A stretch of DNA of 64,000 bases from Deltaproteobacteria bacterium (GTDB taxonomy: Bacteria > Desulfobacterota > Syntrophia > Syntrophales > Smithellaceae): contig JAIGNE010000043.1 in the NCBI GenBank assembly GCA_036528635.1, forward strand, positions 166,622 through 230,621, read 5' to 3'. The notes below the pieces were generated by a model that saw nothing but the letters and a program-made list of their open reading frames with translations, did no database searches and was not told the origin of the DNA. Below are positions 32,807-56,456 of this stretch, piece after piece; position 1 is the first letter of the stretch; each line of letters begins with the position of its first letter. A program made the translations under genes and the position numbers.

Positions 32807-33427
32807 CTATTTTTCAAGCCCTTCCAGGAATCGATCAACGATCTCGCTGTAGAGAGAATGGTATTCATTTTTTGCGAGGATGGTCTTCTGCAATTTCTTC
32901 AGTTGAATCATGCCATTGAAGGCGCCCCAGAGGATGATTGCCTGCCTTTTCGGGTCAACGGCTTTGAAATTTCCTGCGTCGATGCCTTCACGGATGGCCG
33001 CAGTCAGCATGGCAATGCTGGCATCGCCGTGCTTATCGATTTCGTTTTTCAACTTCGGCGGGAAGATGGTTGCGGGCGAGGTTAAAAAGTAATTAATGAT
33101 ATCGAAATAATTCTTGTGATCTTCACTGAATTGCAGATATGCCGCGGCAATCGCCCGGATCTTCTTTTCCGGTGACACTTTTTTATGAACAGCCTGTTCG
33201 ATGGCCCCGTGAAGCAATTCGAGTCCTTCCAGCTGAAGAGACGCAAAAAGCTCTTCCTTATCTTTAAAATAGAAATAAATTGCCCCCACGCTCAACTCGG
33301 AGCGTTTGGCAATCTGATTGATGGAGGTGGCATTCATCCCCTTCTCCAGAAGAAGCTCCCTGGCCGTATCCAGGATATGGCTCTTGCGCTGCTCTTTTTC
33401 TCTTTCGCGTCTTTCCTTTGCACCCAT
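32807..33427 (-). CDS. TetR/AcrR family transcriptional regulator
   Basis: N-terminal HTH ILDTARELLLEKGMNATSINQIAKRSELSVGAIYFYFKDKEEL. 206 aa. Confidence 0.85.
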   Translation of the reverse strand: MGAKERREREKEQRKSHILDTARELLLEKGMNATSINQIAKRSELSVGAIYFYFKDKEELFASLQLEGLELLHGAIEQAVHKKVSPEKKIRAIAAAYLQFSEDHKNYFDIINYFLTSPATIFPPKLKNEIDKHGDASIAMLTAAIREGIDAGNFKAVDPKRQAIILWGAFNGMIQLKKLQKTILAKNEYHSLYSEIVDRFLEGLEK

Positions 33428-33503: not shown

Positions 33504-33782
33504 TCAAAGATTCTTCGCAGCGACATCGTCGCGAACGGCACCCCGGCCGGCCCGATGGACTACCACGTCGAACCACGGTTTCTGTTTTTTGAAAGGGCAC
33601 CAGGCAGATCTGCAATAGCGAATCGGATCTTCGGGAGGAATTTTCATGTCCGGAGACAGACCTTCCCGGTGATTCCTGACCCACTTTCGGGCTTCCTCTT
33701 CCGAATCCGCGTATCCGGCATGATAGATCGTCCGGCCGCGGCAGTGGATAAATCCGTAAATCAATTCATATTGTTCCGGCAT
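33504..33782 (-). CDS. hypothetical small protein
   Basis: 92-aa ORF from ATG 33782 (MPEQYELIYGFIHCRGR...), 13 nt after the ADH stop, with a GAGAGG SD. Co-oriented with neighbours. No homology is recognisable. Confidence 0.3.
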   Translation of the reverse strand: MPEQYELIYGFIHCRGRTIYHAGYADSEEEARKWVRNHREGLSPDMKIPPEDPIRYCRSAWCPFKKQKPWFDVVVHRAGRGAVRDDVAAKNL

Positions 33783-33793
33783 TCGTCCGCCTC

Positions 33794-34816
33794 TCAAAAC
33801 TCCTCGCCGATCCGCAGCAGGACTTTTATCGCGAGCCCCGTGTCGATCCTTTCCCGGTAAACATCCGGGAGGCGCGTAAGCGGTTCATAATCAGAAATCA
33901 ACGGCCGCGCGTCGATCTTCCCCTCGGCCATCCATTGCAGGCATTGGATATTCTCCTCATGCGTATTGGAGTTGGATGCCGTGACGCGGATTTCCTTGAG
34001 ATTGATGAGGAAAGGCGCGGCGATTTCCAGAGGCGAAAAGATCATGCTCACGATACAAATCTCGCCATTATCTGCCGCGAGCAGGATCGCGCGGTCGATA
34101 TTCTGTTTTACACCCGAACATTCAAATGTTTTATTAAACCCGCCGGGAGCGACCGCCATGGCTTGCTGATCCGCATCCTTTTCCAGGGGATCAAAGGCAT
34201 GGTCGGCTCCATAAAGGAGAGCGATCTTCCGCTTTGCCCGGACCGGTTCGTAGAGAACAATCGGGCCATAGCCAAGAATTTTAAGGAGACGCACGGTGCA
34301 AAGGCCGATCGGTCCGCCTCCCATGACCAGCGCCGAGCCCTTCCGGTCGCTTGTGCAATGGATGCCGTGCAGGGCCGCCGCAAAAGTTTCCGCAAGTGCC
34401 GCATTACGGGAATCAACTCCTTCGGGGATGGGGATCAGCATCTGCGGATAGACTTTAACGTACTCGGCAAATCCGCCCTGAAGATCGCCGATGCCTGTGG
34501 TGCGCCTGTGAATCCGGCAAAGGTGCGGCCGACCGGACTGACAGTTGAGGCATGCGCCGCAGTATGTGGGGCGGATGCAGACTCTGGTGCCTATCGGTGG
34601 GCCTTGTGCCTGGGCACCTTTTTCGATGATTACCCCGCTGATTTCATGTCCCAGAATACAGCCATCGGCCAGATGTCCGCCCGCCACCAGCGAGTGATCG
34701 GAGCCGCAGAAACCCGTGTTGGCAACTTTGACCAGCACCTCGTCGCCGGCTATTTGATAGTCGGGGACATCTTCATAAACCAGCCCCCTGTCTTTGCGAT
34801 ATACAACAGCTTTCAT
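33794..34816 (-). CDS. zinc-dependent alcohol/polyol dehydrogenase (MDR family, threonine/sorbitol/butanediol dehydrogenase-like)
   Basis: GFCGSDHS zinc-binding motif, a structural-zinc Cys cluster CGACLNCQSGRPHLC and a Rossmann motif GGGPIGL. 340 aa. Confidence 0.85.
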   Translation of the reverse strand: MKAVVYRKDRGLVYEDVPDYQIAGDEVLVKVANTGFCGSDHSLVAGGHLADGCILGHEISGVIIEKGAQAQGPPIGTRVCIRPTYCGACLNCQSGRPHLCRIHRRTTGIGDLQGGFAEYVKVYPQMLIPIPEGVDSRNAALAETFAAALHGIHCTSDRKGSALVMGGGPIGLCTVRLLKILGYGPIVLYEPVRAKRKIALLYGADHAFDPLEKDADQQAMAVAPGGFNKTFECSGVKQNIDRAILLAADNGEICIVSMIFSPLEIAAPFLINLKEIRVTASNSNTHEENIQCLQWMAEGKIDARPLISDYEPLTRLPDVYRERIDTGLAIKVLLRIGEEF

Positions 34817-34889: not shown

Positions 34890-36188
34890 CTAATCCTCGC
34901 ATTCCAGCGTAATCTTTTCCACCTTGCTCAGATCACTTTTGTAAAAGAAGGATCCGGCAAAAAACAACAGAGCCGAGGCCACCAGGAAAACGGGCAGGAT
35001 CGACATGGCCACCTGGATGCCGTACATATCTGATATCTTGCCGATCACGATGGGCGCCAGGGAGGCGCCGAAGAGATTCTGAACGACAACACAGACCGAG
35101 TAGGAAGTCGCTCGAAGACCGGGGTGAATCACTTCTTGTGTGGCGGTAATAGCCGCCGGGGCAAACGCGGATGCCAGGATGCCCATTCCGATCAGAGTCA
35201 GATATTGCGCCTGTCCATGAAGGAAGGAAATAGCCGTAAAGATGAAGATGGCGTTCAAACCTGTCGTAATCGCGGGAAACAGCAGCCGGGCTGTCGACCG
35301 TTTTTTGAACCACATATCGGCCAGCCATCCTCCCAGGGGCAGGCCGATGAGCGCGAGGATCATGAGCACACTCGTTTTCATGCCCGCCTCGCTGATGGAG
35401 ACGCCTGTCGTACGGTGGAAATAAGTGGGCAGCCAGAAGATAATCGCGTTGTTGGCGAAGATGCAGCCGATAAACCCGAGATTAGTAAAAATCAATGAAG
35501 GGGTATGGATAAATTCGCGGAAGATATCCATCTTCGTCATTTTCACCCGGTTTGGGCCGGTCTTGCAGGATTCATCTGTTTTGACGAGCTCGACGGTTTT
35601 ATAGTCCTTGACGAAGAAAAAGAGGATGGCCACAATCGCCCCGGGAATAGCCACCAGGCCGAAGGCATGCCGCCAGCCCCAATGCGTGGCGATGAAACCG
35701 CCGAGGCCGATGCCGACGGCGATGCCCAGTGGAATGGAAATATTCCAGAGGCCCATCATTCGGGAACGTTTTTCCGGAGGAAACAAACCGGAAAGCATGG
35801 CCGTTCCGGCAGGGGCGTATCCGGCCTCACCGATTCCGATGGCGGAGCGGGCCGCGAGCAGCTGGGGGAAAGTTTTCGTGAAAGCGCAGGCGACCGTCGC
35901 GGCAGTCCAGAGCAGGGCCATGACACCGATCGTCTTTTTCCGGCTCCAGCGGTCCACGAGGATCGAAACGGGAAAGACAAAAACAACGATCGACCAGTAG
36001 ACAACCGACATGAGCAGACCGGACTGCGTGTCCGTCAGGCCCCATTCTTTTTGAATGAAGGGGGCCAGCGATGTCACGATCGTCCGATCCACGTAATCAA
36101 AGAAATACAGCAGGAAAAGCAGCGTAAAGATGTAGTAAGCGCTTCTCGTTGAAAGCTTGTATTCCCTGGGGGCAGTCACGTTATTCAT
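34890..36188 (-). CDS. MFS transporter
   Basis: 12 predicted TM helices. The MFS signature region GVMALLWTAATVACAF....LLAARSAIGIGEAG is present. 432 aa. Confidence 0.85.
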   Translation of the reverse strand: MNNVTAPREYKLSTRSAYYIFTLLFLLYFFDYVDRTIVTSLAPFIQKEWGLTDTQSGLLMSVVYWSIVVFVFPVSILVDRWSRKKTIGVMALLWTAATVACAFTKTFPQLLAARSAIGIGEAGYAPAGTAMLSGLFPPEKRSRMMGLWNISIPLGIAVGIGLGGFIATHWGWRHAFGLVAIPGAIVAILFFFVKDYKTVELVKTDESCKTGPNRVKMTKMDIFREFIHTPSLIFTNLGFIGCIFANNAIIFWLPTYFHRTTGVSISEAGMKTSVLMILALIGLPLGGWLADMWFKKRSTARLLFPAITTGLNAIFIFTAISFLHGQAQYLTLIGMGILASAFAPAAITATQEVIHPGLRATSYSVCVVVQNLFGASLAPIVIGKISDMYGIQVAMSILPVFLVASALLFFAGSFFYKSDLSKVEKITLECED

Positions 36189-36261: not shown

Positions 36262-37959
36262 TCAATTACATTTATATCCTCCAAGGTTGGCCAGGGCGAC
36301 GCTGCCGGGGCTGATTACGGAAGGATCGACCTTGACATTGATACAGGCTGTCTTCCCGGAGGCAAACGCCGCTTCGAGCGCGGGCCGGATGTCTTCCGGT
36401 TTTTCCACAAATGCGCCGAAGCCTCCCAGGACCTCCACCATCTTGTGGTAATCGACCCAGCCCAGTTCCGTTCCGTTGGGGATGTTGTGTCCGAGGCGCA
36501 GCTGCTGGCTGTGCGCGATCATTCCCCAGGACTGGTCATTGGCAATCACCACGACGATGGGCAGCTTCTTGCGGATCGCCGTATGAAACTCCATGAAGTT
36601 GAAGCCCGCCGAACCGTCGCCCATCACGAGCAGAACGCGCTTATCCGGATGCTTCAGTTTGGCGGCGTTGGCGTAAGGAATGCCCACGGCCAGGCAGCCG
36701 TAAAGACCGTAATCCAGATACGTCCCGCCTTTGACGACGGTCCGGGTCATGCCCATCCAGGTGGACGTGTCGCCGCCGTCGGCGACGACGATGTCATCTT
36801 CCCGATCCATGAATTTGTTGATTTCATTGGCCAGACGCATGGGATGCATGGGCAGCGTTTCGCACTCCCACATCGCTTTGGCTTCTTTTTTGCCGGCATC
36901 ATGAGCGGTGCGGACGGTATCCACCCAGGGCTGATACTGTTTCTTCAGTGTGTCGCCGAGCTTTTGTTCATCCAGATCACCGTTCAACTCCTTGAGGAAG
37001 GATTTGATGTCGCTCACGATACCGAGATCAATCGTCCGGTTGCGCCCGATTTCATCAGCGGTGATGTCGACCTGAATGAACTTGGCCTGCGGCGGAAAAA
37101 TTTCTCCGAAAATATAGAAGAGACTTAATCGGCCGCCCAGGAAGAGCACCAGGTCGGTGGTCATGAGCGTGATCATGGCTGAGCCGGGACGGATGGCCAG
37201 AGAACCTTCGAAACAAAGGGGATGCGTATCGGGGATGACGCCGCGGCCGGCACCCGCCGTGTAAACCGGGATACCGATCTTCTCCACGAATTCGATGATC
37301 TCTTTTTCGGCATCCGAATACCACAGGCCGCTGCCGCCGATCACGATCGGGTTTTTGGCTGCCTTGAGCAGGTCGACAACCTTCCGGGTGTTCTCACGGT
37401 CGACGGGCTTGGAGGCGAGCGTCGTACTGGGCTTTTTGACGGCCGCCATGTTCACCTTGGCATTCAGAATGTTGCAGGGAAATTCCAGGTAGACGGGCCC
37501 CGGCCGGCCGCTCATCGCTGCACGGAACGCCATGTCCACGTATTCGGGAATCCGCTCCGGAATGTGACAGACAAACGCTTTCTTCACCATCGGCTCAATC
37601 ACCGGCAGCTGTGTCATGTCCTGCAGGTCCAGCTTTTCTGTAGACTCGGTTCCCACGCACCCGGCAATGAGGATAACCGGCGCGTTGGACAAACGGGCGC
37701 TCGCGATGCCCGACAGGGCATTGGTAAATCCAGGTCCGGCAGTGACCATCGCCACCGCGGGCTTGCGGTTCATCCGGGCCTGCGCCTCGGCCATAAAGAC
37801 GGCCGCCTGTTCATGGCGCACGTCAAAAAGAGTGACGCTTGTATTCTCCAGATACTGGTAAATCGGCGTAATGTGCCCGCCACTCAATGAAAAGACGTAA
37901 TCCACGCCCCGATCAACCAGGGCATCCGCGACGAGTTTGCCGCCAATAACGTTATCCAT
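36262..37959 (-). CDS. thiamine-pyrophosphate enzyme, acetolactate-synthase/oxalyl-CoA-decarboxylase-like
   Basis: N-terminal TPP-PYR domain (YVFSLSGGHITPIY, RHEQAAVFMAEA), central domain, and C-terminal TPP-binding GDGSAGFN. The ATG at 37959 (MDNVIGGK) is preceded by AAGGAGA; the track ORF starts upstream. Confidence 0.8.
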   Translation of the reverse strand: MDNVIGGKLVADALVDRGVDYVFSLSGGHITPIYQYLENTSVTLFDVRHEQAAVFMAEAQARMNRKPAVAMVTAGPGFTNALSGIASARLSNAPVILIAGCVGTESTEKLDLQDMTQLPVIEPMVKKAFVCHIPERIPEYVDMAFRAAMSGRPGPVYLEFPCNILNAKVNMAAVKKPSTTLASKPVDRENTRKVVDLLKAAKNPIVIGGSGLWYSDAEKEIIEFVEKIGIPVYTAGAGRGVIPDTHPLCFEGSLAIRPGSAMITLMTTDLVLFLGGRLSLFYIFGEIFPPQAKFIQVDITADEIGRNRTIDLGIVSDIKSFLKELNGDLDEQKLGDTLKKQYQPWVDTVRTAHDAGKKEAKAMWECETLPMHPMRLANEINKFMDREDDIVVADGGDTSTWMGMTRTVVKGGTYLDYGLYGCLAVGIPYANAAKLKHPDKRVLLVMGDGSAGFNFMEFHTAIRKKLPIVVVIANDQSWGMIAHSQQLRLGHNIPNGTELGWVDYHKMVEVLGGFGAFVEKPEDIRPALEAAFASGKTACINVKVDPSVISPGSVALANLGGYKCN

Positions 37960-37994
37960 GATAATATCTCCTTCTAAAGGCTGGTAAATTTTTT

Positions 37995-38834
37995 TTATAA
38001 TTCCATGCACTGGCCGCCATCGACATTGATGGCCTGTCCGGTAATGTAGCGCGAAGCGTCGGACGCCAGGAAGGCCACCAGATCAGCGGCTTCACCCGGG
38101 CTGCCGATACAACCCAGGGGAATGGTTTTGCACATTTCCTTTTCCCGTTCTTCAATCGTCGTGCCGAAAAACGACGCCTCCAGGCCGAAGCGCCACTTCT
38201 CCAGATCCGTCGCGATTTGCCCCGGGCAGATGGCATTGACCCGGATGCCGTTGCCGCCCAGCTCCTTGGCCATGGTCTTGGTCAGCATGATGACGCCGGC
38301 TTTGGCCACGGCGTAGGCGCTGTTAAAAATGGGGGGCACCTTGCCGGCCCTGGAGGCCGTGTTGATGATGACAGCGGGTTTGCCCGCCATGAGCGGGACA
38401 ACGGCACGCGAGATGCGAAAGACCGAAAACAGGTTCACGTCGATGGTCCTGATCCAGGCCGCTTCATCATAGCTAAGGACGGTGTTGGGCACGCCGAAAG
38501 ACGCTCCCGCGTTGTTGCAGAGGATATCGATGTGGTCGAAGCTGCCCTTGATGGTTTCCACCATCGCGCTGATGGCCTGGTTATCCGTCACGTCAACGGA
38601 GACGGCCAGGGTTTTCACGCCGTGTGTTTTGGCCAGTTCCGCGGCAATTGCGTTCATCTCCTCGCCGGTCGCCGACTTCAGGGATTCGCCCGGCGTCGGC
38701 GCGACGCCCAGATCGGCGATGATGACATGGCATCCGCAGGACGCCAGCTTTTCGGCAATCGCGTAGCCAATGCCCGTTTTTTTGCCGGCTCCCGTAACAA
38801 TGGCCGTCTTTTCTTTCAAATCGTTATAAATCAT
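37995..38834 (-). CDS. SDR-family NAD(P)-dependent oxidoreductase
   Basis: [10 protein letters not shown] cofactor motif, NNAG, and a catalytic YxxxK-like region (YAVAK). The ATG at 38834 (MIYNDL) is preceded by GAAGGAGG and lies 5 nt after the upstream stop. Confidence 0.8.
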
Positions 38835-40587
38835 CGGATCCTCCTTCATCGTACCAATGACGATGATCCAGATGGGCGTATTTGGGCAGGAAGCGCGTCG
38901 GCAGCGCCAGGGCGTCTTTCCGGAAAGGCGGCGCGAGCTGCTTGCCGTCCACCAGAAATTCGAGAACGGTCGGCTTGCGGCTTTTCAGGCAGGTATCCAA
39001 TGCTCCCCGGATATCCGCGGGCTTGCTGACTTGCATACTGTTGGCGCCCATGGCCTTGGCGACGGGCACGAAGCTCTCCGGATTGGGAATGTCCACGCCG
39101 ACGAAACGGTTGTTGTAAAAGTCCACCTGGTTTTTCGCCTCGGCGCCCCACCACATGTTGCGGAAAACGCAGGCAACGACGGGCAGGTTATGCTCAACGG
39201 CCGTGCTGACTTCATGGAGGCTCATGCCCCACGCCCCGTCGCCGATGATGGCGATGACCGGTGATTTGGGCTTGGCAATCTGCGCACCCAGGGCCGCGGG
39301 ATAGGCAAAGCCCGTGTTGCCGAAAGTGAGCGCCGCGATATGCTGCCTCGGGTGGTTGAACTTGAGATAGCTGTTGGCCGTGGAGGCGACGTTGCCGATA
39401 TCGGTTGTGACAATGGCATCCTCCGGAAGGGCCTGCGTGATTTCCAGCAGGGCGCGGCGGGGGTTCATGGGGCTGCCGTCCACCATCGCCAGACCGACAA
39501 TCTCCTTTTCCCAGATTTTCTTTTCCTTCGCCACGGCAGCCAGGCGTTTCTCATTAGGCACGCGCTTCCGGTCCGCGGCCTTGAGGCGTTTCAGGATTTC
39601 CACCGTCGCCTCCTTCGCGTCGCCGATGATGCCGACCTCGATGGGGTGAGTCCGGGCGATGTGTTTGGGGTTGATATCGATCTGGATGATCTTCGCATTT
39701 TCCGGGAAGTAATTGATGTCATACTGGGGCAGCGTTCCGAAGACGGAGAGCCGCGTCCCGATGGCCAGCATGACGTCGGCCTTGGCCAGCGTCTTCATGG
39801 CCGCCTTGGAACCCATGTAGCCGATGGGACCGACGGACAGCGGATGATTTCCGTAAAACGCGTCGTTGTGAAGGTAGGTCACAGCGACGGGGGCCGTCAG
39901 GTGTTCGGCGATCGCCTTCACGATATCGAGCGCCTCGGCGTCCACGACGCCGCGGCCGGAAACGATGACGGGATTTTTGGCAGAGGCAAGCAGTTCGGCG
40001 GCGCGGTCCAGTTGCGCCATAGATCCGCAGCCCCGGGCATCCACACGGTATTGCGAAGGCGTTAGGATCTTTTCCTCCAGTTCACCGTAGAAGTAGTCGC
40101 GGGGAATATCATACAGGACGGCGCCGCGGTCGGCGTAGGCAATACGGAATGCCGTTCTCAGGCAATCGGCAGCTCTTTTGGGATGAGGAACGCGGACGAC
40201 GGCTTTCGTAACAGACCGGAAGACGGACATCTGGTCGCACTCCTGGAAACCGTCCCAGCCGATCGTCGGTGTTCCGGCCGAGGGCGAAATAATCACCAGG
40301 GGCGTATGGCCCATGTTCGCCGCGGCCACCGATGTGACCATGTTCGTGATGCCGGGGCCGTTCTGGCCGGTGACGACGCCGCAGCGCCCCGATATGCGGC
40401 TGTAGGCGTCTTCCATATGGGCGGCGCTCTGTTCATGACGAACGGGAATGAACTTGATCCCGGCCGTCGGGAAGAGGTCCAGCATGTCCATAAACGCCGA
40501 TCCGACGATGCCGCAAACATGGTCCACGCCCTCTGCAAGCAGCGTCTCAACGATCGCTTCGCTGGGTGTCATTTTAACCTTTTTCAT
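38824..40587 (-). CDS. TPP-dependent enzyme resembling sulfoacetaldehyde acetyltransferase (Xsc-like; ALS/POX superfamily)
   Basis: N-terminus [40 protein letters not shown]...[13 protein letters not shown]...GQNGPGITN...[18 protein letters not shown]. This matches the Xsc N-terminal pattern as I recall it (GSAxM rather than the ALS PGGA motif). Length is about 587 aa. The start with GGAGGT SD at 40587 is preferred over the ATGA-overlap ATG at 40656. Confidence 0.55.
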
Positions 40588-40652
40588 TTTGATTACCTCC
40601 AATATCGATTCATTGTTGAATGGTTGAAAAACGCGGTCGCTTGCGGCCCGTT

Positions 40653-41852
40653 TCATTGTTGCCGTAAAACCGCCCAGGACTCGCAGGCGATCATTTTTTC
40701 TTCATCTGTCGGTACGACGAAAACGTTGATTTTTGATTCCCATGCGGAGATGACCCGTTCGCCGTCGCCGTCGATGTTTCTATCCTCATCGAGAACGATG
40801 CCCAGCCAGGACAGGAAGCCTAAGATCCGTCGCCGCATCTGCGGCGAGTGCTCACCGATCCCCGCCGTGAAGGCCAGGGCGTCCAATCCATCGATCGCCG
40901 GAATCAGCGAGCCCACGCCCCGGGCCACGCTGTAGGCAAAAACGGCCAGCGCCAGGTGCGCGCGCTCATGACCCTGGGCGGCCGCCTTTTCCAGGTCGCG
41001 GAAGTCGGGGGACACGCCGGAAATTCCCAGAACCCCGCTCTGCCGGTTGAGGATTTCCATGACACCGGCCATAGAGCAGCTTTCCTTTTCCATGATGAAG
41101 GAAACGACCGCCGGATCGATGTCTCCCGAGCGCGTGCCCATGACCAGTCCCGACAGCGGCGTGAAGCCCATGGAAGTGTCCAGCGATTGATCCCCCCTCA
41201 CGGCGCAGAGGCTGGAACCCGCGCCAAGATGACAGGTGATGATCCGCGGTGCTGCGGTCTTGTCCCGCAGGAGCTCCGCCGTGCGGCGCGCGACATACCG
41301 GTGCGACGTGCCATGGAAACCATAGCGGCGGACGTGGTCTTCGGTGTAATACCGGTACGGAATGGCGTACGTGAAGGCATGCGCGGGCATGCTCTGGTGA
41401 AAGGCCGTATCGAAGACGGCCACCTGCGGCACGCCGGGCATCAGATTGGCGCAGACATCAATGCCCATAAGGTTCGGGGGATTATGCAGCGGCGCGAGCT
41501 TTTTGGTTGACTCGAGGATCTCGCGCGCTGCGGCATCTATCACGACAGACATTCGGAAATGCTCGCCGCCGTGAACAACGCGGTGTCCGATGCCGCCTAT
41601 CTCACTCATGTCGGACAGGATGCCCCGCCGGCAATCCACCAGATAGGTCAGGAGAACCTGTACGGCTTCCTGGTGATTTCGCAGCGGCTTTTTATCCAGA
41701 AAAGCCGCTCGCCCTTTTACGTCATGGCGAAACAAGGCTTCGGTCTGGCCGATGCGGTCTGCCTGACCGTTCGCCAGGACAACGCCTTCCGGCATATCGA
41801 AAAGCTTATACTTTAAAGAGGAGCTGCCGCAATTCAAGACGAGAATCTTCAC
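40653..41852 (-). CDS. ackA: acetate kinase
   Basis: [19 protein letters not shown]-terminus plus an acetate/propionate kinase signature. The GTG start overlaps the dsrP TGA stop (GTGA). Confidence 0.9.
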
Positions 41853-43051
41853 AAATCACACCCCGCTTCTTTCTCCACGGCTGGAGAAACCCTGCTCTCC
41901 CCCGAAGTGCTGCGAACGGCAATGAAAACCCGGTAAAGGATCGTCAGGATCAAAAATCCCCCGGCCCAGACGCCCAGCGTAATGCCGATCTCCAGGCCTG
42001 TCGGCGTGTATTCGGTTATATGATCCAGCGGCGACGGGATAAAGCCCGTCACGACAAGACCCAGTCCTTTCTCGATCCACAGTGAGATAAAAACGGCCGC
42101 GCAGGCGATGGCTAAAAGCCAATCCCGTTTCGTCGTTTGCGGAAGCAGCAATACAACCAGAGCGCCAAAAGCCAGCAGCACCGACATCCACATCCAGGCG
42201 ACAAGATTTGTATGGCCTTCCAGGCCGACAAACAGATAGCGGAAGGGCAGGCCGTGCTCCGGAATCCCGCTGTAGAAGGCCGTGAAGAGTTCAACGGCGA
42301 CAAAAAAGATACTCGCCGCCAACGCATAGGCGACGATCCGGGAAAGCATCCGAACGGCCCTGGCGCCCGCGTCAAATGATCCGGTATGCTTCAGGATCAG
42401 GCAAAAGATAATCAGCAGGGCCGGGCCCGACGCAAAAGCGGAGGCCAAAAACCGGGGGGCCATAATCGCCGTGAGCCAGAAGCTGCGTCCGGGAAGACCG
42501 GCATAGATAAAAGCGGTGATGGTGTGGATGCTGACCGCCCACGGAATGGACACGATGATCAGGGGCTTGACCCACGCAGGCGGCGCGATCCCCTTGCCAT
42601 TGGCGGCAAGAACCGTCCAGCCGGTGATGAGATTAATCAGCAGATAACCGGACAAAACGATCATGTCCCAGAACAAAATAGAGGTCGGCGAAGGATGGAG
42701 GATGACGTTCATCACGCGTTCCGGCCGGCCCAGATCAATGAAGATGAAGGCCACGCACATGACGACGGCGGCTACCGCGAGGAATTCCCCCAGGACTGTG
42801 ATCCGTCCGAAGACTTTGTAGTCATGCAGATAATAAGGCAGGACGACCATCACGGCCGAAGCGGCAATGCCGACCAGAAACGTAAACTGAGCGATATAAA
42901 GCCCCCAGCTGACGTTGCGGCTCATGCCCGTAATTCCCAGGCCCTGATCCAACTGGACCAGGTAGCATAAGAAGCCGGAACCCATGACAGCCAGCAAAAA
43001 CAGGATCCAGATCCAGTATGGCCATTTTCCTCTCAGCGCTTTTTCCAGCAT
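41849..43051 (-). CDS. dsrP: DsrP, NrfD/PsrC-family integral membrane quinone-interacting subunit of the DsrMKJOP complex
   Basis: 10-TM NrfD-like protein downstream of dsrO. Start assigned to the internal ATG (MLEKALRGKWPYW) with a GAGG SD, 7 nt after the dsrO stop. The track ORF extends to 43171. Confidence 0.8.
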   Translation of the reverse strand: MLEKALRGKWPYWIWILFLLAVMGSGFLCYLVQLDQGLGITGMSRNVSWGLYIAQFTFLVGIAASAVMVVLPYYLHDYKVFGRITVLGEFLAVAAVVMCVAFIFIDLGRPERVMNVILHPSPTSILFWDMIVLSGYLLINLITGWTVLAANGKGIAPPAWVKPLIIVSIPWAVSIHTITAFIYAGLPGRSFWLTAIMAPRFLASAFASGPALLIIFCLILKHTGSFDAGARAVRMLSRIVAYALAASIFFVAVELFTAFYSGIPEHGLPFRYLFVGLEGHTNLVAWMWMSVLLAFGALVVLLLPQTTKRDWLLAIACAAVFISLWIEKGLGLVVTGFIPSPLDHITEYTPTGLEIGITLGVWAGGFLILTILYRVFIAVRSTSGESRVSPAVEKEAGCDL

Positions 43052-43058
43052 AGGAGCC

Positions 43059-43850
43059 TCATAAACTATAATAGATCTGCGGTTCAGTCCCGAGGATGGG
43101 GCGTCTGCGCAGGGTAAAACGGTTTTGGATGAAGGTACGTATTTCCGATTGCGGATCTTCCGGGTCGCCAAAAATCAGGGCCTTCTCTTTACAGGCCAGA
43201 ACACAGGCGGGCAGCATGCCTTTGGCCAGCCGCTCCTCGCAGAAGTTGCATTTCTCCACCACGCCCCTGGCGCGTGTGGGAAAATCGGATGTGATCCTTT
43301 TGATCTTCGGGCGGGGGTCGCGGTAATTCATGCTGCGGGCTCCGTACGGACAGGCGGCCATGCAAAAACGGCAGCCGATGCAGCGATGGTAATCCATCAT
43401 GACAATGCCGTCTTCCCTGCGGAAAGTCGCCTTCGTGGGACAGACGCGGACGCAGGGTGGATTGGCGCAGTGATTGCACAAAACAAGCGGTCGCATGGAT
43501 CGGGTATTTTGGGGGAGATAAGAATGATTCTCCTCGGGGAAAATGCGGGGGAACTCCTCGTGCCAGATCCATTTGATTTCATCTTTGGGATTGCCGAAAT
43601 CGGGAACATTGTGAACCGCATGGCAGGCATCGATGCAATCGGTGCACGAGGCCGGGCATTTGCTTCCATCGACCGCCATCGCCCAGCGTCGGGCTTTAAG
43701 CGCAGGCAGGGTTCCGGTGGACGGTGCGAATTTTCGTCCCGCGTCAGAGCCTGCGGCCAGCGACTGAGGCAGAATCAAGGCCTGGGGCAGGACCAGGGCC
43801 AGGGCGGATGCCCCTGTTATTTTTAAAAATTCCCTGCGACTCGATTCCAT
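43059..43850 (-). CDS. dsrO: DsrO, periplasmic 4Fe-4S ferredoxin-like subunit (Tat-secreted)
   Basis: Twin-arginine signal MESSRREFLKITGASALAL. Several CxxCxxCxxxCP ferredoxin motifs. The TAATG overlaps the dsrJ stop. The track ORF extends to 43952. Confidence 0.8.
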   Translation of the reverse strand: MESSRREFLKITGASALALVLPQALILPQSLAAGSDAGRKFAPSTGTLPALKARRWAMAVDGSKCPASCTDCIDACHAVHNVPDFGNPKDEIKWIWHEEFPRIFPEENHSYLPQNTRSMRPLVLCNHCANPPCVRVCPTKATFRREDGIVMMDYHRCIGCRFCMAACPYGARSMNYRDPRPKIKRITSDFPTRARGVVEKCNFCEERLAKGMLPACVLACKEKALIFGDPEDPQSEIRTFIQNRFTLRRRPILGTEPQIYYSL

Positions 43851-44251
43851 TATTTCACCTCTTCGGGAACAACGTGGCAGCTCCAGCATGCGGGCTTCGC
43901 GCCCAAATAGTTGTGACACCGGTCGCAAAACTGCTCCTTGTTGCTGTGGCATTTCAGGCAGGTGTTTGTGAGCCCGATCTCATAGGTCTTTCCATTTTTA
44001 GCGATGTAGCGATGGTTACCCTGCCTCACGGCCTGATCTCTCCATTCGCCCAGAAGCTTCATATGACTGGTTCTCATGAAGGTCTTGTCTTCCACGCATT
44101 TCTTATTCGGCAGTTGGGCAATCGCGGGCGTATCGAGATCGAGCCTGGGCGGCTCAGATTTCTTACCCCCGCCGTACCAGAAGGGAAACGTGACCCCGAC
44201 GATAAAAATCACCAGTCCCAGAATGATCAAGCCCCATTTTTTATTTTTCAT
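43850..44251 (-). CDS. dsrJ: DsrJ, periplasmic triheme cytochrome c
   Basis: Signal anchor MKNKKWGLIILGLVIFIV. Three CxxCH heme motifs (CLKCH, CDRCH, CWSCH). About 133 aa. The track ORF starts upstream at 44311. Confidence 0.8.
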   Translation of the reverse strand: MKNKKWGLIILGLVIFIVGVTFPFWYGGGKKSEPPRLDLDTPAIAQLPNKKCVEDKTFMRTSHMKLLGEWRDQAVRQGNHRYIAKNGKTYEIGLTNTCLKCHSNKEQFCDRCHNYLGAKPACWSCHVVPEEVK

Positions 44252-44268
44252 CTTTTTACATCCACCAT

Positions 44269-49612: not shown

Positions 49613-49939
49613 TCAGACACAACCTGTCGGCTTGGAAAGCCCCGCCAGCTTGCAGGCCCCTTTAGCCGGTCCGGTCGGGAAGAGCTCATAGAGCTTCTTC
49701 ATATCCATGGCGTTATCTTTGCAGACTTTACGGACCATGGGGGCAATGCCGAACTTCTGGAAATATTCTCTCAGATAATTAATGAGCTTCCAATGTTCTT
49801 CGGTAAGCGGACCTTCAATGTCCTCCGTATGGGCGTAAGCCTGAGCGAAATCCTCTGTCCATTTATCGAGCTCCTGTAAAAAGCCGTCTTCGTCCACTTC
49901 GTACATTTTACCCGCCAATTCAATTTGTGGCATTTTCAA
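49613..49939 (-). CDS. dsrC: DsrC (TusE/DsrC family sulfur relay / sulfite reductase gamma protein)
   Basis: C-terminal arm CKLAGLSKPTGCV with both conserved cysteines. 108 aa. Confidence 0.9.
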   Translation of the reverse strand: MKMPQIELAGKMYEVDEDGFLQELDKWTEDFAQAYAHTEDIEGPLTEEHWKLINYLREYFQKFGIAPMVRKVCKDNAMDMKKLYELFPTGPAKGACKLAGLSKPTGCV

Positions 49940-49972: not shown

Positions 49973-51433
49973 TCATAAACCCATCCGCTTATCGGGCGTG
50001 GCGTCAGGCCTGTCCCTGAGAAAAGCGGGCGCGCGATTTAACTTTGTCTGGTGGTAATGTGAGGCTCTTTCAATAAGAGCATCCGCCCACTCGGGAGTCC
50101 CCAGCGCGTGCAGATGCGTGAAGCCCGCCAGAATATTTTTCCGGCACAGGCCGTCTCTTTGACCGTCCATTCCGGTTCCCCGCACAACGCGGCAGGCGGT
50201 GTGGCTTTCATCATCTCTTTGAGAAAGGATCCGGCAGTAATGGAATTCATGACCGGTGAGCGTCTGGCCTATGGGGAAAAACGGATTTTCCCGATCCACG
50301 GTCAGGGTTGTATAGCCGTGTCCCTGCGGTCGTTTCTCCATCCCGAACGCGACCGGCAGCGCGCCCGCCATCGGATATTGCTGATCGCCGATGGTCAGGG
50401 ATTCGCCGAGGTAAATGAAGCCCCCGCATTCCGCATAAATCGGCAGGCCGGCTTCGGCTGCTTCTTTTACGGAAAGGCGGAAGGATTCGTTTGCGGCAAG
50501 CCTCCCGGCCCGGGTTTCAGGAAAACCGCCGCCGATATACAGGGCGTCAACGGGCGGCAGAGCTTTATCGTCCAGCGCACTGATCGGAATCACCCGCGCG
50601 CCCCGGTCGGCGAGCGCCTCAATATTATCCTCATAATAGAACTGAAATGCCGCATCTCTGATGACGCCGATGGTCACCGGCTCGGGAGCGCCCCGGCCGG
50701 TCCAGACCGGATTGGGAAACGCGTCGATCTTCCAGGGCGAGGCGCTGCGGGCTTCGTTGAGCAGGCCCGGCATGTCCAGATAGTCGCGGGCGATCTGCCC
50801 CGCCCGGTCGAGCGCCTGATGCACCCGATCATGCTCCTCGGGGGGAATCAATCCCAGGTGCCGCTGTACGAACGGCAGATCCGGCAGACGCGGCACGGTT
50901 CCGTAAACGGGCAGGCCGGTGTATGTTTCAATGGATTGGCGAATCACCGAGGCATGACGGCTGCCGTTCACCCGGCTCAGGACAACGCCCCGGATGTCCA
51001 CCGCGGGATCAAGGTGCAGACAGCCCAAAACCATGGCTGCTGCCGTCCGGGTCACCTTGTCGCAGTCGACAACCAGAATAACAGGAGCGTGCAGGAGTTT
51101 GGCCAGTTCGGCCGTGCTGAACTCTCCCCGGGCGTTGACGCCGTCAAAGAGACCGCGATTGCCTTCGATGAGCGAAACACCATTCTGGGCTGCATGGCGT
51201 GAAAATGAGCGGACAACCTGGTCGGGCCCCATTAAAAAAGTATCCAGATTATAAGAGGGACCGGACGCCGCCCGGGCAAGCCAGGCGGCATCAATATAGT
51301 CCGGTCCCTTTTTGAAGGGGGCAACGGTTATGCCCTCTCTGCGCAGGGCCACAGCCATGGCCACAGAAAGGGTGGTTTTTCCTGCACCGCCCCGCAGGGC
51401 GGCGATCATTAAACGTGGACAGGATCGATTCAT
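49973..51433 (-). CDS. dsrN: DsrN, cobyrinic acid a,c-diamide synthase homolog (siroheme amidase)
   Basis: N-terminal P-loop IAALRGGAGKTT and a C-terminal glutamine amidotransferase domain (CGGFIYLG). Lies between dsrD and dsrC. The true start may be the internal MIAAL. Confidence 0.8.
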   Translation of the reverse strand: MNRSCPRLMIAALRGGAGKTTLSVAMAVALRREGITVAPFKKGPDYIDAAWLARAASGPSYNLDTFLMGPDQVVRSFSRHAAQNGVSLIEGNRGLFDGVNARGEFSTAELAKLLHAPVILVVDCDKVTRTAAAMVLGCLHLDPAVDIRGVVLSRVNGSRHASVIRQSIETYTGLPVYGTVPRLPDLPFVQRHLGLIPPEEHDRVHQALDRAGQIARDYLDMPGLLNEARSASPWKIDAFPNPVWTGRGAPEPVTIGVIRDAAFQFYYEDNIEALADRGARVIPISALDDKALPPVDALYIGGGFPETRAGRLAANESFRLSVKEAAEAGLPIYAECGGFIYLGESLTIGDQQYPMAGALPVAFGMEKRPQGHGYTTLTVDRENPFFPIGQTLTGHEFHYCRILSQRDDESHTACRVVRGTGMDGQRDGLCRKNILAGFTHLHALGTPEWADALIERASHYHQTKLNRAPAFLRDRPDATPDKRMGL

Positions 51434-51447: not shown

Positions 51448-51684
51448 TCAGGCACAGGGTTCTTCCTTGGGAAAGAATTCGGCCAGGATGAGGTATGTGG
51501 AACTGCCGCTCGACCAGTACTTCAAGACTTCCTCGTCGAGGAGTTCTTTCACGACATTCTGAATGGCGTGGCGATCCTCATCGGGCAGCCATTTCGTGAC
51601 GTCCCGGATATAAAACATCTTCTTGTCACCCTTGGATTTTTCATGGAAAAGGTCGATAATCCGTTTCTTTAAGTCTTCGCTCAT
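51448..51684 (-). CDS. dsrD: DsrD (small winged-helix protein of reductive-type dsr loci)
   Basis: The LKYWSSGSSTYL motif matches the DsrD YWSSGSTTMY signature. Start at MSEDLKK lies 2 nt after the dsrB stop. The track ORF begins 4 codons upstream. Confidence 0.8.
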   Translation of the reverse strand: MSEDLKKRIIDLFHEKSKGDKKMFYIRDVTKWLPDEDRHAIQNVVKELLDEEVLKYWSSGSSTYLILAEFFPKEEPCA

Positions 51685-51686
51685 AA

Positions 51687-52751
51687 TCACCTCCATTTGA
51701 ACTGCGTCGATGTCCGGAAGGTCTCGGTGGCCAGATCAAAGTCGTCGATATGCTTGTCCGTAAACGGGATGCCGGTCAGACTGAAGAACCGCTCCCAGCC
51801 GACCCGGTCGATCCATTCGCCGACCCGCTCATGTTTGCGGGCATGGCTGGCATAAATTTCGATAATATTTTTGACTGCGTCCACAACCTCCGGCCAGCGC
51901 GGCGGGTTATTGGGAAGAAATGGAATGGCCAGTTTGGAGAACTTCGGAGCGCTGCGGGCATTGGAAACTTTGCCGCCCACCCAGATGGAAATGCCGTCAT
52001 TGTCGGGATCCGCAATCGGCATCGCCGGACACACCGTATAGCAGTTGCCGCAGTACATGCATTTTTCCGGATTGACGGTGACGGTTTTGTTTTTCATGTC
52101 GCCCCGGATCGCTCCGGTCGGACAGGATGCCACCGTGGAGGGAATTTCACACATATTGGGAACGCGGGAGTTATCCGTCTTGGGGATGGTCCGGTGGATG
52201 CCCAGAATGGCGATATCCGAGCAGTGCACGGCTCCGCACATATTCAGGCAGCACGCCAGGGCAATCCGCACATGCGCCGGCAGTGTGGCCGTCACAAAGT
52301 AATCATAAATTTCATCCATCAGCGCCTTAACCGGGCCGGAGGCATCGGTCGCCGGTGTATGGCAGTGGACCCACCCCTGGGTATGAACGATATTGGAGAT
52401 GGAGTGCCCCGTGCCGCCGACCGGATAATTGCGGCTTTTCAATTCCTCAATCAGCGGTTCGATCTTATCTTTGTCGTCGAGCAGAAACTCTATATTGTGG
52501 CGGCTCGTAAAACGCAAAAAGCCGTCACAGTACTTTTCGGCGATATCGCAGATTTCCCGGATATGATCCGTCGAAACGAGCCTGGGCGATCCGGCGCGCA
52601 CGCTGTAGAGCGCCTCGCCCGACTGGCCGATGTGCATCAGCACGCCCGGCTTCAGGATTTCATGGTAGAGCCATTTCCCGTAATTTCTCTGGATGACGGG
52701 AGGCAGCATAGTTTTATAATCAGGGGGACCGATATCTGTTCTTGCAGCCAT
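51687..52751 (-). CDS. dsrB: dissimilatory sulfite reductase beta subunit
   Basis: 354 aa. Siroheme/FeS cysteine cluster and a ferredoxin domain [12 protein letters not shown]. Located immediately after dsrA. Confidence 0.9.
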
Positions 52752-52752: not shown

Positions 52753-53940
52753 TTACTTTACCTCCTTTTCAAGATCTTCCGGCCAGAAAAAAACGTAGGG
52801 GTTGCTTCTGGGCGCCTTCACCATCTGCGGAACCGCGGGAAGGCCCACGGCCCTCAAAAAGACCCGCATGCCCAGGCGCGTGATCAGTTCGCCGAGTCTT
52901 TCACGCGATTTGCCGAACTCGTCCCACCAGTCCTGAATACGTTCGATCAGATCTTTGAGTTCTGTATAAGGAGGCTCCAGCTTCATAAAGGGCACGATCA
53001 CCCAGGAAAGCAGTGCGCCCTTCACAATGGGCGCCTTGCCTCCGACCAGAATGGATGCGCCTTTTTCCCTGCCCGGCCTGAGGGCCTTCGGCATCAGATT
53101 GATGCAGTGCATGCAGCGGGTGCAGTCCTCATTATGTATTGTCAATTCTTTGCCGTTCCACTCCATGCAACGGGTCGGGCACAGATCGCAGACTTCTTTC
53201 TGAATGTTGATGGTTGAGGCATAGGCCAAAGCTTCCGGCTGATCGATTTGAATATCATCTTTCCAGGTCCCGATGATCGACAGATCGGAGCGGGCAATCG
53301 AAGCGACGCAGTCGTTGGCGCAGGCGGCAACTTTGATCTTGAATTTGTAGGGGAACATAGGGCGATGGATTTGATCCTGATACGTCATCGTGATGTTGTA
53401 GCAGATATCGAGGCTGTCCACGCAGGCCCATTCACAGCGCGCGGGTCCCACGCAGGCACTGGGCGTGCGCAAGGCCGAGCCGGACCCGCCCAGGTCAAAG
53501 CCGGCCTCGGAAAGATCATCGAAACAAGGCTGGAGATGGTCCGTGGTTGTTCCCAGTAAAATGACGTCTCCCGTAGCGCCATGCATGTTGGTGAGTCCGC
53601 TGCCGTGTTTGTCCCAGATGTCGCACAACTTGCGCAGCGTTTCTGTTTTGTAGAACCATCCCGTCGGATGATTGACTCTCATGGTATGAAAAGCCTGAAC
53701 GTTCGGGAACAGATCGGGACGATCAGAATAGCGCCCGATGACACCGGCGCCGTAGCCCTTGACGCCAACAATGCCTCCGTGCTTCCAGTGACCGATCTTG
53801 TCCTCGTAGGAGAGTTCCAGCTGGCCCAGGAGATCCTCAGCCATGGGACTCTTCTGCGCTGCCTGCTTCAAATCTTTGACGAAGCTGGGCCATTTTCCTT
53901 TTTCCAACTCGTCGAGCAGGGGAGTTTCTGTTTTCGCCAT
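52753..53940 (-). CDS. dsrA: dissimilatory sulfite reductase alpha subunit
   Basis: [21 protein letters not shown]...[10 protein letters not shown]...[21 protein letters not shown]...[14 protein letters not shown]...[23 protein letters not shown] aligns to canonical DsrA. Start taken as the internal ATG ([10 protein letters not shown]); the track ORF begins 12 codons upstream at 53976. Confidence 0.9.
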
Positions 53941-56444: not shown

Positions 56445-56456
56445 TCAAGGGGTATC

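Follow-up and report, generated by a model that had tools for sequence, protein, structure and literature searches.

Gene content of the locus

A 64,000-nt stretch of DNA from a Smithellaceae (Syntrophales) bacterium (assembly GCA_036528635.1, contig JAIGNE010000043.1, positions 166,622 to 230,621) carries a set of genes for dissimilatory sulfite reduction (dsr) that runs directly into genes for acetate kinase (ackA) and sulfoacetaldehyde acetyltransferase (xsc), followed by a module built on a short-chain dehydrogenase/reductase (SDR) and a second thiamine diphosphate (ThDP) enzyme, here called TPP2. From this point on, the whole stretch is referred to as the window, and gene coordinates are window positions. 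All genes of interest, from dsrA through a TetR-family regulator, lie on the minus strand in the order dsrABDNC, dsrM2K2, dsrMKJOP, ackA, xsc, SDR, TPP2, a major facilitator superfamily (MFS) transporter, a zinc-dependent alcohol dehydrogenase (Zn-ADH), a 97-aa open reading frame (ORF) and TetR. Past TetR the strand switches, and genes for flotillin and NfeD follow. Protein identities were judged by NCBIfam models with curated (equivalog) cutoffs, plus Pfam. The features are listed below in the direction of transcription.

52753..53940, minus strand: dsrA, dissimilatory sulfite reductase alpha subunit (TIGR02064, 563.2 bits, cutoff 392.85)
51687..52751, minus strand: dsrB, dissimilatory sulfite reductase beta subunit (TIGR02066, 526.6 bits, cutoff 341.5)
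51448..51696, minus strand: dsrD, directly after dsrB (PF08679, 60.7 bits, cutoff 24.2)
49973..51433, minus strand: dsrN-like a,c-diamide synthase of the CobB/CbiA family (NF002204, 428.7 bits)
49613..49933, minus strand: dsrC, C-terminus ...PTGCV (TIGR03342, 113.5 bits, cutoff 53.5)
48557-49501 and 46947-48560, minus strand: dsrM2 and dsrK2, a paralogous pair
45933-46922, minus strand: dsrM (456.4 bits, cutoff 300)
44329-45930, minus strand: dsrK (745.3 bits, cutoff 400)
43850-44311, minus strand: dsrJ (164.3 bits, cutoff 100)
43059-43952 as the longest ORF, likely start 43850, minus strand: dsrO (297.1 bits, cutoff 200)
41849..43054 (longest ORF to 43171), minus strand: dsrP, membrane subunit of the NrfD type (NF045798, 467.1 bits, cutoff 350)
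40653..41852, minus strand: ackA, acetate/propionate-family kinase (TIGR00016, 457.3 bits, cutoff 293.4)
38824..40587, minus strand: xsc, sulfoacetaldehyde acetyltransferase, 587 aa (TIGR03457, NF005713)
37995..38834, minus strand: SDR, classical SDR dehydrogenase, 279 aa (PF13561, PF00106)
36262..37959, minus strand: TPP2, ThDP enzyme resembling benzaldehyde lyase and 2-hydroxyacyl-CoA lyase, 565 aa (three ThDP domains)
34890..36188, minus strand: MFS transporter of the anion:cation symporter type, 432 aa (PF07690, 200.6 bits)
33794..34816, minus strand: Zn-ADH, medium-chain dehydrogenase of the polyol/threonine-dehydrogenase type, 340 aa (PF08240, PF00107)
33504..33797, minus strand: 97-aa ORF overlapping the Zn-ADH stop (no Pfam or NCBIfam family)
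32807..33427, minus strand: TetR-family regulator, the last co-oriented gene (PF00440, 62.1 bits)

All five subunits of DsrMKJOP score above their NCBIfam equivalog cutoffs, in the order M-K-J-O-P, and DsrA, DsrB, DsrC and DsrD likewise exceed theirs. DsrD, which marks reductive use of the Dsr pathway (PMC10591310), adjoins DsrAB and thereby assigns the system to the reductive type. The CobB/CbiA-type protein is presumably DsrN, a name given from its position in the operon. Between dsrC and dsrMKJOP sits the paralogous dsrM2K2 pair, which is kept in relatives; DsrK2 is divergent, reaching 344.8 bits with the DsrK model (cutoff 400), and DsrM2 has a weak Nitrate_red_gam (NarI-type) match. AckA is full-length at its N-terminus, and the acetate- and propionate-specific equivalog models stay below cutoff. 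More than 25 related loci have the 97-aa ORF, with 55-86% identity, and it is probably a real gene of the module. No gene for sat, aprAB, qmo or taurine aminotransferase was found within the 64-kb window.

Identification of Xsc

Judged by its sequence, the first of the two ThDP enzymes is Xsc, as a preliminary description of this DNA had proposed in preference to acetolactate synthase (ALS). The protein scores 839.9 bits with the equivalog model TIGR03457 (cutoff 676.4) and 840.4 bits with NF005713 (cutoff 620), whereas the best ALS model, TIGR00118, gives 398.8 bits, below its own cutoff of 538. In an HMM comparison of Xsc against ALS and Oxc models, then, the Xsc cutoff is passed, and ALS and the sister families are clearly lower. 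Domains PF02776, PF00205 and PF02775 are all matched, and the alignment contains the motifs VRHEQSA, with the cofactor-activating Glu, and IGDGAWG...FRN, the Mg/ThDP motif. The protein is 72-81% identical to Xsc encoded in ald-tpa-xsc taurine clusters, among them that of Desulforamulus ruminis (79%, in a tauABC-like/ald/tpa/xsc cluster), and 85-91% identical to homologs named Xsc in metagenome-assembled genomes (MAGs) of Smithella, Smithellaceae, Syntrophus and Syntrophales. No exact copy of the window Xsc was present in the contig collection, and homologs were compared in its stead. A survey table lists E510 and Q125 of a characterized enzyme of this family (SAAT, Q84H41) and equates their columns with T481 and Q113 of benzaldehyde lyase (BAL) (PMC13327070). 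In our MAFFT alignment, which permits an indirect comparison with Q84H41 by way of BAL, the columns of BAL T481 and Q113 are occupied in the window protein by E and Q, respectively. The position of ackA directly upstream associates xsc with an enzyme that uses acetyl-phosphate.

Gene junctions

The junction between dsrP and ackA reads ...GAT TTG TGA AG..., so that the ackA GTG (41852) shares 4 nt with the dsrP TGA (41851-41849); the GTGA overlap noted earlier is thus present in the junction sequence. The ackA stop lies at 40655-40653 and the xsc ATG at 40587, with a Shine-Dalgarno sequence (GGAGG) 8 nt before it; the two genes are 65 nt apart, where 63 nt had been given before. An alternative 610-aa xsc ORF would begin at ATG 40656, and the HMM alignment begins at residue 5 of the 587-aa form. 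The SDR had been described as starting 5 nt beyond the xsc stop. Its likely start is instead ATG 38834, with GGAGG upstream, which produces an 11-nt overlap with the xsc stop; an in-frame TTG 4 nt past that stop probably explains the earlier figure. TPP2 starts at ATG 37959, preceded by AAGGAG, 35 nt past the SDR stop, exactly as had been reported. In the case of dsrP, the likely start is ATG 43054 rather than TTG 43171, and the HMM alignment begins at residue 41 of the long ORF.

These arrangements recur in related genomes. The 11-nt overlap of xsc and SDR is invariant in every orthologous locus examined, and in the window and most relatives the gene behind dsrP begins at a distance of -4 to +15 nt from its stop codon. 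A few relatives (L024, L033, L038, L039) have a gap of 290-430 nt between dsrP and ackA. Terminator-like and promoter-like matches between 32.5 and 45 kb occur at the level of shuffled controls, with none at any junction, and the five intergenic gaps contain no inverted repeats or hairpins. These scans point to no operator or terminator, and they do not argue against an internal promoter. From the start/stop overlap, the lack of terminators and the conservation described below, we infer that ackA and xsc are expressed together with dsrMKJOP, as a 3' extension of the dsr operon. Under such an arrangement, sulfite would be produced only alongside the enzymes that use it up.

Conservation of the linkage between dsr and xsc

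A scan for Xsc, using one genome per GTDB species, yielded 80 loci (numbered L), in which homologs of the window proteins were placed by tblastn. Those with Xsc at least 81.5% identical to that of the window form a Syntrophales-type clade of 45 loci, whose MAGs are labeled Smithella, Smithellaceae, Syntrophaceae, Syntrophales, Desulfomonilia or 'delta proteobacterium'. The remaining 35 belong to Firmicutes sulfate reducers and Bacillaceae. In 29 of the 34 Syntrophales-type loci with at least 3.5 kb of upstream sequence, xsc is preceded by dsrP in the same orientation, and ackA adjoins xsc in 27 of 34. The SDR-TPP2 pair lies downstream of xsc in 28 of 37. Among the other 35 loci, dsrP occurs once, in a Syntrophales MAG just under the identity threshold (L050), and an orthologous SDR-TPP2 pair not at all (0/35). 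A Tpa-like gene shows the reverse distribution, with 4/45 Syntrophales-type loci vs 29/35 of the Firmicutes/Bacillaceae type having one nearby. The closest locus, from a Smithellaceae MAG (L012, CAXXVL010000002.1), has an identical gene order, with proteins from DsrM through TetR 81-96% identical. Because the same order and the same tight spacing are found in about 30 species-level genomes, the arrangement is no chance juxtaposition.

Some relatives show variants of this layout. In L009 and L047 it ends after xsc, and in a group labeled Desulfomonilia a pyridoxal phosphate (PLP)-dependent decarboxylase and a PRK06062-type aminotransferase stand by dsr-ackA-xsc, replacing SDR-TPP2. The invariant core is dsrMKJOP-(ackA)-xsc, and the feeder genes vary by lineage.

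An additional gene lies between dsrP and ackA/xsc in many relatives and is absent from the window. It encodes a CoA-disulfide-reductase-like flavoprotein with a C-terminal rhodanese domain (564 aa, L001:7026-8720; also in L004, L017, L025, L029-L031, L037, L060 and L104). The last 1-4 nt of dsrP are shared with the start of this gene, whose product scores 398.9 bits with TIGR03385, below cutoff. The protein is possibly a persulfide or CoA-persulfide reductase tied to Dsr.

TPP2 and the dehydrogenase and transporter genes

The second ThDP enzyme had been described as ALS-like. It reaches no curated cutoff, and ALS is not its nearest family. Its highest score is with PRK05858 (419.6 bits, cutoff 587), followed by 2-hydroxyacyl-CoA lyase (HACL; 343.7, cutoff 600), ALS TIGR00118 (304, cutoff 538), Oxc (297, cutoff 557, and 279, cutoff 739), AlsS NF006378 (262.1, cutoff 510), TIGR02418 (244.6, cutoff 551) and Xsc (235, cutoff 676). 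In public databases its homologs are annotated merely as 'thiamine pyrophosphate-binding protein' or 'acetolactate synthase'. The nearest PDB entries are HACL, HACS and Oxc at 283 bits, and BAL together with a formolase derivative of it at 269 bits.

TPP2 aligns with BAL end to end (4-557 to 4-557) and shares with it His29 (LSGGH29ITPIYQ), Gln113 (LQ113), Glu50 (RHE50Q) and an N-x-Q-S-W-G loop. Neither HACS nor Xsc has the BAL-type His or this loop. In 31 TPP2 orthologs His29, Gln113, Glu50 and the GDG-X-ND motif are invariant, and His29, Gln113 and the ThDP residues are also kept in 38%-identical Firmicutes paralogs near tpa-xsc. We take it that, when BAL cleaves the C-C bond of a 2-hydroxy-ketone, His29 is the base removing the proton from the substrate hydroxyl, and that the His29/Gln113 pair with Glu50 is catalytic. 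The aromatic pocket of BAL is replaced in TPP2 (W163C, Y397S, H415Y, A480M, T481I, F484S). TPP2 therefore has the appearance of a ThDP enzyme that cleaves a C-C bond in a small, non-aromatic substrate, and it may be BAL-like in mechanism without being a benzaldehyde lyase.

Three more specific assignments were considered for TPP2 and set aside. All of its ALS and AlsS scores are below cutoff. Certification as HACL or Oxc is denied by the sub-cutoff scores, by an Ile in the column of AcHACL E493 and BAL T481, and by the lack of a CoA-activating gene in the cluster. ComDE consists of two subunits without the middle domain, whereas TPP2 is a single chain with PF00205. Nevertheless, TPP2 could catalyze the ComDE reaction as a non-orthologous replacement.

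The SDR had tentatively been likened to IsfD or SarD. The likeness to SarD fails on family grounds: the window protein belongs to the SDR family (PF13561, PF00106) and SarD-type enzymes to the Fe-ADH family. No NCBIfam model reaches its cutoff for this protein. It has the motifs TGAG..G and YxxxK, and its beta-2 strand ends in Asp (VIIAD), which presumably indicates use of NAD+. No sulfoacetaldehyde reductase entry occurs among the best 60 of its 112 PDB matches (E up to 1e-25). The Zn-ADH best matches L-idonate 5-dehydrogenase, scyllo-inosose 3-dehydrogenase and threonine 3-dehydrogenase at about 127-130 bits, all below cutoff. The MFS protein gives 180.5 bits with TIGR00893, the D-galactonate transporter subfamily, also below cutoff, and a homolog at 44% identity is encoded near xsc in L032.

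That locus (L032:120-11533) has an Xsc 90% identical to that of the window, without dsr linkage. Its other genes encode a GntR regulator, a PRK06062-type aminotransferase, an 805-aa FAD-oxidase/GcvT fusion, two amidohydrolases and the MFS protein, and the cluster looks like one for catabolism of an N-substituted taurine.

Distribution of the SDR-TPP2 module

Where Syntrophales-type xsc does not follow dsrP, SDR-TPP2 still lies downstream and sulfite/sulfate exporters flank the genes. To illustrate, L034 reads TauE-Xsc-SDR-TPP2-MFS, and L045 reads DASS-PF03601 (TauZ-like)-AckA-Xsc-SDR-TPP2-SBF-SDR, SBF being the bile-acid:Na+ symporter family; we take TauZ to be a member of PF03601.

A metagenome scan seeded with the TPP2 alignment returned 80 further loci at 41-94% identity. 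Of the 17 loci that offer 4 kb or more on each side, 15 keep the SDR-TPP2 pair intact. After the pair there are usually genes for a transporter (MFS or SBF), for another dehydrogenase (SDR or Zn-ADH) and for TetR, and TetR accompanies SDR-TPP2-transporter units in many unrelated contigs. Two loci, L140 (6402-14380; TetR-SDR-TPP2-SBF-SDR-Xsc-AckA) and L113 (Xsc-AckA-SDR-TPP2-MFS-SDR), encode Xsc proteins that are 50-51% identical to the window Xsc and score 759.6 and 771.6 bits with TIGR03457. By these sequences, the module is tied to a different Xsc lineage as well. In L096 (6713-13037) and L154, SDR-TPP2-MFS-(ZnADH)-TetR stands directly upstream of dsrAB, which is a second, independent dsr linkage of the module. 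A Bacillota MAG (L056) has a 38%-identical TPP2 paralog, Zn-ADH, PLP decarboxylase, MFS and an NAD-dependent dehydrogenase directly before ald-tpa-xsc. The repeated association with the rare Xsc, in two lineages, with dsr at either end of the operon, and with exporters of the TauE/TauZ type argues for a shared pathway.

Free-standing operons of the form TetR-SDR-TPP2-SBF-SDR are common (L126, L130, L133, L141, L144), and in L140 an operon of this form runs on into Xsc-AckA. Near Xsc-linked genes or SDR/TPP2 there is repeatedly a gene for a PLP decarboxylase of group II (MfnA/GAD-like; TIGR03812, 250-273 bits, below cutoff; L043:13951-16743, L056:2602-3933, L145, L147, L150), a hint that an amino-sulfonate, cysteate for instance, may be another way into the pathway.

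Proposed pathway and alternatives

We consider it likely that the block is an organosulfonate-respiration locus and that its module supplies the sulfoacetaldehyde. By homology, Xsc would convert sulfoacetaldehyde and phosphate to acetyl-phosphate and sulfite, AckA would convert acetyl-phosphate and ADP to acetate and ATP, and DsrAB with DsrC, re-reduced by DsrMKJOP, would turn the sulfite into sulfide, drawing on the quinone pool for electrons. Upstream of these steps, the MFS transporter may import an anionic hydroxy-sulfonate, which the SDR and the Zn-ADH or a second SDR may oxidize to a 2-oxo or 2-hydroxy-carbonyl sulfonate, and TPP2 may cut one C-C bond to leave sulfoacetaldehyde. The recurrence of the SDR-TPP2-transporter-dehydrogenase unit by two Xsc lineages and TauE/TauZ-like exporters suggests that it probably feeds sulfoacetaldehyde to Xsc from such an imported hydroxy-sulfonate. 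Taurine was rejected as the substrate of the locus, since the 64 kb contain no aminotransferase and a Tpa-like gene is near only 4 of the 45 related loci.

Two versions of the upstream steps can be drawn. In the more conservative, (a), sulfolactate would be oxidized to sulfopyruvate and cleaved to sulfoacetaldehyde and CO2, with TPP2 in place of ComDE; the two dehydrogenases could serve the two sulfolactate enantiomers. This version has precedent in its favor, namely the SlcD/ComC-ComDE-Xsc route. In version (b), 2,3-dihydroxypropane-1-sulfonate (DHPS) would be oxidized at C2, as by HpsO/HpsP, or at C2 and C3, to an alpha-hydroxy-ketone or keto-aldehyde, which a cleavage like that of BAL or cyclohexanedione hydrolase would split to sulfoacetaldehyde and formaldehyde or formate. 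Here the BAL-type His29 and a redox-neutral stoichiometry are the favorable points. By our own arithmetic, the balance C3H8O5S -> C2H4O2 + CO2 + H2S + H2O is redox-neutral, so that DHPS would be both donor and acceptor.

Several observations weigh against the proposal that the block is a single organosulfonate-respiration unit. The window encodes no Tpa, Toa, TauXY, IseJ, SarD, ComDE or SauT, and neither the SDR nor the Zn-ADH reaches any curated family cutoff. ATP capture is not always encoded at the locus, since ackA is absent in L004, L018, L028 and L040. Xsc occurs in the flanks of only 6 of the 17 metagenome loci with large flanks, so the module is not obligatorily linked to it. In addition, co-transcription is deduced only from gene overlaps and absent terminator-like structures, the terminal TetR gene suggests that at least part of the block has a regulated promoter of its own, and in L046 SDR-TPP2-MFS-TetR forms a separate operon convergent on xsc.

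In one alternative, ackA-xsc and the downstream genes are adjacent to dsr yet independent of it, expressed from one or more TetR-controlled promoters of their own; the sulfite would be reduced chiefly to detoxify it or to dispose of electrons while a sulfonate is fermented, with respiration not obligately coupled to the cleavage. A TetR gene within the block, free-standing operons of the module elsewhere and the 290-430 nt dsrP-ackA gap of L024, L033, L038 and L039 would all fit, and anaerobic taurine fermentation via Xsc is known from Desulfonispora thiosulfatigenes, as cited in PMC10507020. We find it unlikely nonetheless. The usual spacing of -4 to +15 nt after dsrP leaves no non-coding room for a promoter, the dsrP-xsc linkage is kept in 29 of 34 species, and the junctions have no terminator-like hairpin. 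DsrMKJOP, moreover, is a quinone-linked, energy-conserving complex, so sulfite reduction through it is respiration by definition. An independent TetR promoter is possible for the distal genes and is a poor fit to the 4-nt overlap of dsrP and ackA. A second alternative concerns the substrate: the MFS protein would import isethionate, an IsfD-like, NAD+-dependent SDR or the Zn-ADH would oxidize it to sulfoacetaldehyde, and TPP2 would have a side role such as carboligation or the scavenging of reactive aldehyde. The 11-nt xsc-SDR overlap seen in every locus fits a direct substrate-product relation, and IsfD, a known sulfoacetaldehyde reductase, is itself of the SDR family. Isethionate is also commonly formed when sulfoquinovose and taurine are fermented (PMC11489063, PMC10413351). 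Against this, the steadiest partner of the SDR is TPP2 (15 of 17 metagenome loci) and not Xsc (6), a one-step route needs neither TPP2 nor a second dehydrogenase, both of which co-occur with the SDR across lineages, and the best 60 of 112 PDB matches of the SDR include no sulfoacetaldehyde reductase. An isethionate-only locus therefore seems improbable.

The remaining two alternatives concern the chemistry of TPP2. Were it an HACL splitting 3-sulfolactyl-CoA into sulfoacetaldehyde and formyl-CoA, its PDB matches to HACL/HACS/Oxc (283 bits) and the rank of the NCBIfam HACL model, second-best at 343.7 bits, would be explained. These scores are, however, far below cutoff (343.7 vs 600, 297 vs 557, 279 vs 739), and neither the cluster nor any related module contains a CoA ligase or CoA transferase. 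At position 29 and in the loop, TPP2 resembles BAL (GGH; N-D-Q-S-W-G) and not HACS (GFP; N-N-G-G-I-G), and it has Ile where AcHACL has its catalytic Glu493 (table in PMC13327070), all of which makes CoA-dependent cleavage highly improbable. The preliminary description had itself named acetoin/2,3-butanediol metabolism as the main alternative; both ThDP enzymes would then be acetolactate synthases, and the SDR and Zn-ADH butanediol dehydrogenases. Zn-ADHs of the threonine/sorbitol dehydrogenase type do include (R,R)-butanediol dehydrogenases, and the SDR has sub-threshold similarity to meso-2,3-butanediol dehydrogenase (169 bits, cutoff 270) and to acetoin reductase. The HMM scores effectively refute this alternative, to which we give almost no credence: the Xsc identity of the first ThDP enzyme is clear-cut, and TPP2 reaches 262 bits with AlsS (cutoff 510) and 304 with biosynthetic ALS (cutoff 538). 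The cluster also lacks an acetolactate decarboxylase, its transporter is of the anion type, and SDR-TPP2 travels with Xsc, with TauE/TauZ-like sulfite/sulfate exporters and with dsr genes.

Relationship to known systems

Xsc is already known to be paired with Pta or AckA. The closest described parallel to the organosulfonate respiration proposed here is Taurinivorans muris LT0009, in which a Tpa-Ald-Xsc-AckA pathway feeding DsrAB/DsrC/DsrMKJOP has been demonstrated (PMC10507020). As proposed for the window, Xsc there yields sulfite and acetyl-phosphate, AckA makes ATP, and the sulfite is respired via Dsr. The differences are in the genes and the organism. In T. muris, a member of the Desulfovibrionaceae, xsc belongs to a taurine cluster with tpa, ald and TRAP transporters and is not described as part of the dsr operon, whereas in the Syntrophales window ackA-xsc is fused to dsrP; the window has no aminotransferase, and an SDR with a BAL-like ThDP enzyme replaces Tpa. 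Orthologous Xsc is also found in the ald-tpa-xsc clusters of Firmicutes (Desulforamulus ruminis, L007; Desulfovirgula, L054; Bacillaceae, L062-L090), some of which (L054, L055) carry ackA nearby, as the window does. In clusters of this type tpa accompanies xsc in 29 of 35 loci and an orthologous SDR-TPP2 pair in none, and the window is the opposite on both counts.

The route of Roseovarius nubinhibens reportedly proceeds from sulfolactate through sulfopyruvate to sulfoacetaldehyde by SlcD, ComDE, Xsc and Pta. Like the route proposed for the window, it combines a dehydrogenase, removal of one carbon by a ThDP enzyme, and desulfonation by Xsc. ComDE is a two-subunit enzyme without the middle domain, in contrast to the single 565-aa, three-domain TPP2 of the BAL/HACL branch, and the Roseovarius-type route is aerobic and ends with Pta and sulfite export or oxidation, where the window has AckA and Dsr. 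In Cupriavidus pinatubonensis, HpsO and HpsP are said to be DHPS-2-dehydrogenases of the SDR family, accompanied by the MFS importer HpsU. An SDR that oxidizes a hydroxy-sulfonate beta to the sulfonate is thus paired with an MFS importer, as in the window, a likeness by description only. In Cupriavidus the oxidized intermediate is only re-reduced, inverting the stereochemistry before HpsN acts, and no ThDP lyase takes part. The BAL of Pseudomonas fluorescens (PDB 2AG0, 3D7K) shares catalytic residues and a loop with TPP2 and differs in the aromatic pocket; its context is aromatic catabolism, and that of TPP2 is sulfonate and sulfite metabolism.

An aerobic route in which C3 sulfonates are oxidized and decarboxylated to sulfoacetaldehyde, the substrate of Xsc, is already known and has been reviewed (PMC11489063). 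Sulfite-reducing peatland Acidobacteria have suyAB/comC/slcC drawn alongside dsr genes in a gene-organization figure (PMC6018796). As in the window, an enzyme that releases sulfite from an organosulfonate is found together with Dsr, sulfate activation is possibly absent, and the organosulfonate would be the sulfite source. The Acidobacterial enzyme is SuyAB, a sulfolactate sulfo-lyase, with xsc explicitly absent and translational coupling to dsrP unreported, in contrast to the Xsc of the window. At the level of whole genomes, xsc and dsrAB co-occur in subsurface MAGs (PMC12019592). The dsrAB of Smithella has been noted without explanation (PMC5946492), and Syntrophales DsrAB constitutes 'uncultured family-level lineage 6', for which no physiology was inferred (PMC10591310).

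In the literature searched, with subscription journals outside its coverage, we found no report that ackA-xsc is fused to dsrP, that this fusion is conserved in about 30 Syntrophales species, that an SDR and a BAL-like ThDP enzyme replace Tpa, or that the module exists as a widespread unit. The same search gave no account of the locus for Smithella or Syntroph* with sulfoacetaldehyde or Xsc, and no ThDP enzyme of the BAL type in sulfonate catabolism. The claim of novelty made in the preliminary description thus holds in part: the fusion to dsr is undescribed in that literature, and the Xsc-to-Dsr logic was already established in T. muris (PMC10507020). The pathway logic is not new; as far as that literature goes, the gene fusion and the accessory module are.

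Other features of the window

Divergent from dsrA, on the plus strand (54264-56960), are genes for a 426-aa protein with a weak BPL_N/GATase-like match and for a thiol-redox pair beside dsr, consisting of a DsbD-like membrane thiol-disulfide reductase domain and a ResA-like protein of the thioredoxin fold. An 838-aa ORF on the minus strand (17848-20364) has no Pfam or NCBIfam match. The GC content of the 20001-22000 interval is 0.427, against about 0.55 in its surroundings, and three small co-oriented ORFs (20741-21704) lie within it; this patch may be a toxin-antitoxin system or a mobile remnant. The intervals 1-16906, 26565-30392 and 58994-62945 are housekeeping in character, with selA, a HemN-like radical SAM protein, def, and gcvT-H-PA-PB with lipA, and they also hold an RND efflux system, an acyl-CoA ligase, asd, ribF, EttA and an amidase.

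Implications

Smithella and its relatives are the textbook syntrophic degraders of propionate and alkanes in digesters, aquifers and wetlands. The conserved layout described here suggests that such supposed syntrophs respire organosulfonates, and the locus offers a concrete and testable answer to the unexplained dsrAB of Smithella relatives. If this is true, the acceptor sulfite would be made inside the cell from organosulfonates, without sulfate activation and with one substrate-level ATP per sulfonate. A further-reaching proposal, which we put forward tentatively and regard as rather doubtful in its entirety, is that the module constitutes an undescribed route from C3 sulfonates to sulfoacetaldehyde that requires neither oxygen nor a glycyl-radical enzyme, with DHPS as the most attractive substrate and TPP2 as a new sulfonate C-C lyase, and that, through its tie to the dsr operon, Smithella-type 'syntrophs', and perhaps the environmental DsrAB 'uncultured lineage 6' as well, are specialized organosulfonate respirers of methanogenic habitats. 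The SDR-TPP2 module is widespread in metagenomes, accompanies two Xsc lineages and is unannotated, and it is a good candidate for a missing sulfoacetaldehyde-forming step in anaerobic C3-sulfonate degradation. Respiration of this kind, if it takes place, would be a cryptic sulfur sink competing with methanogenesis.

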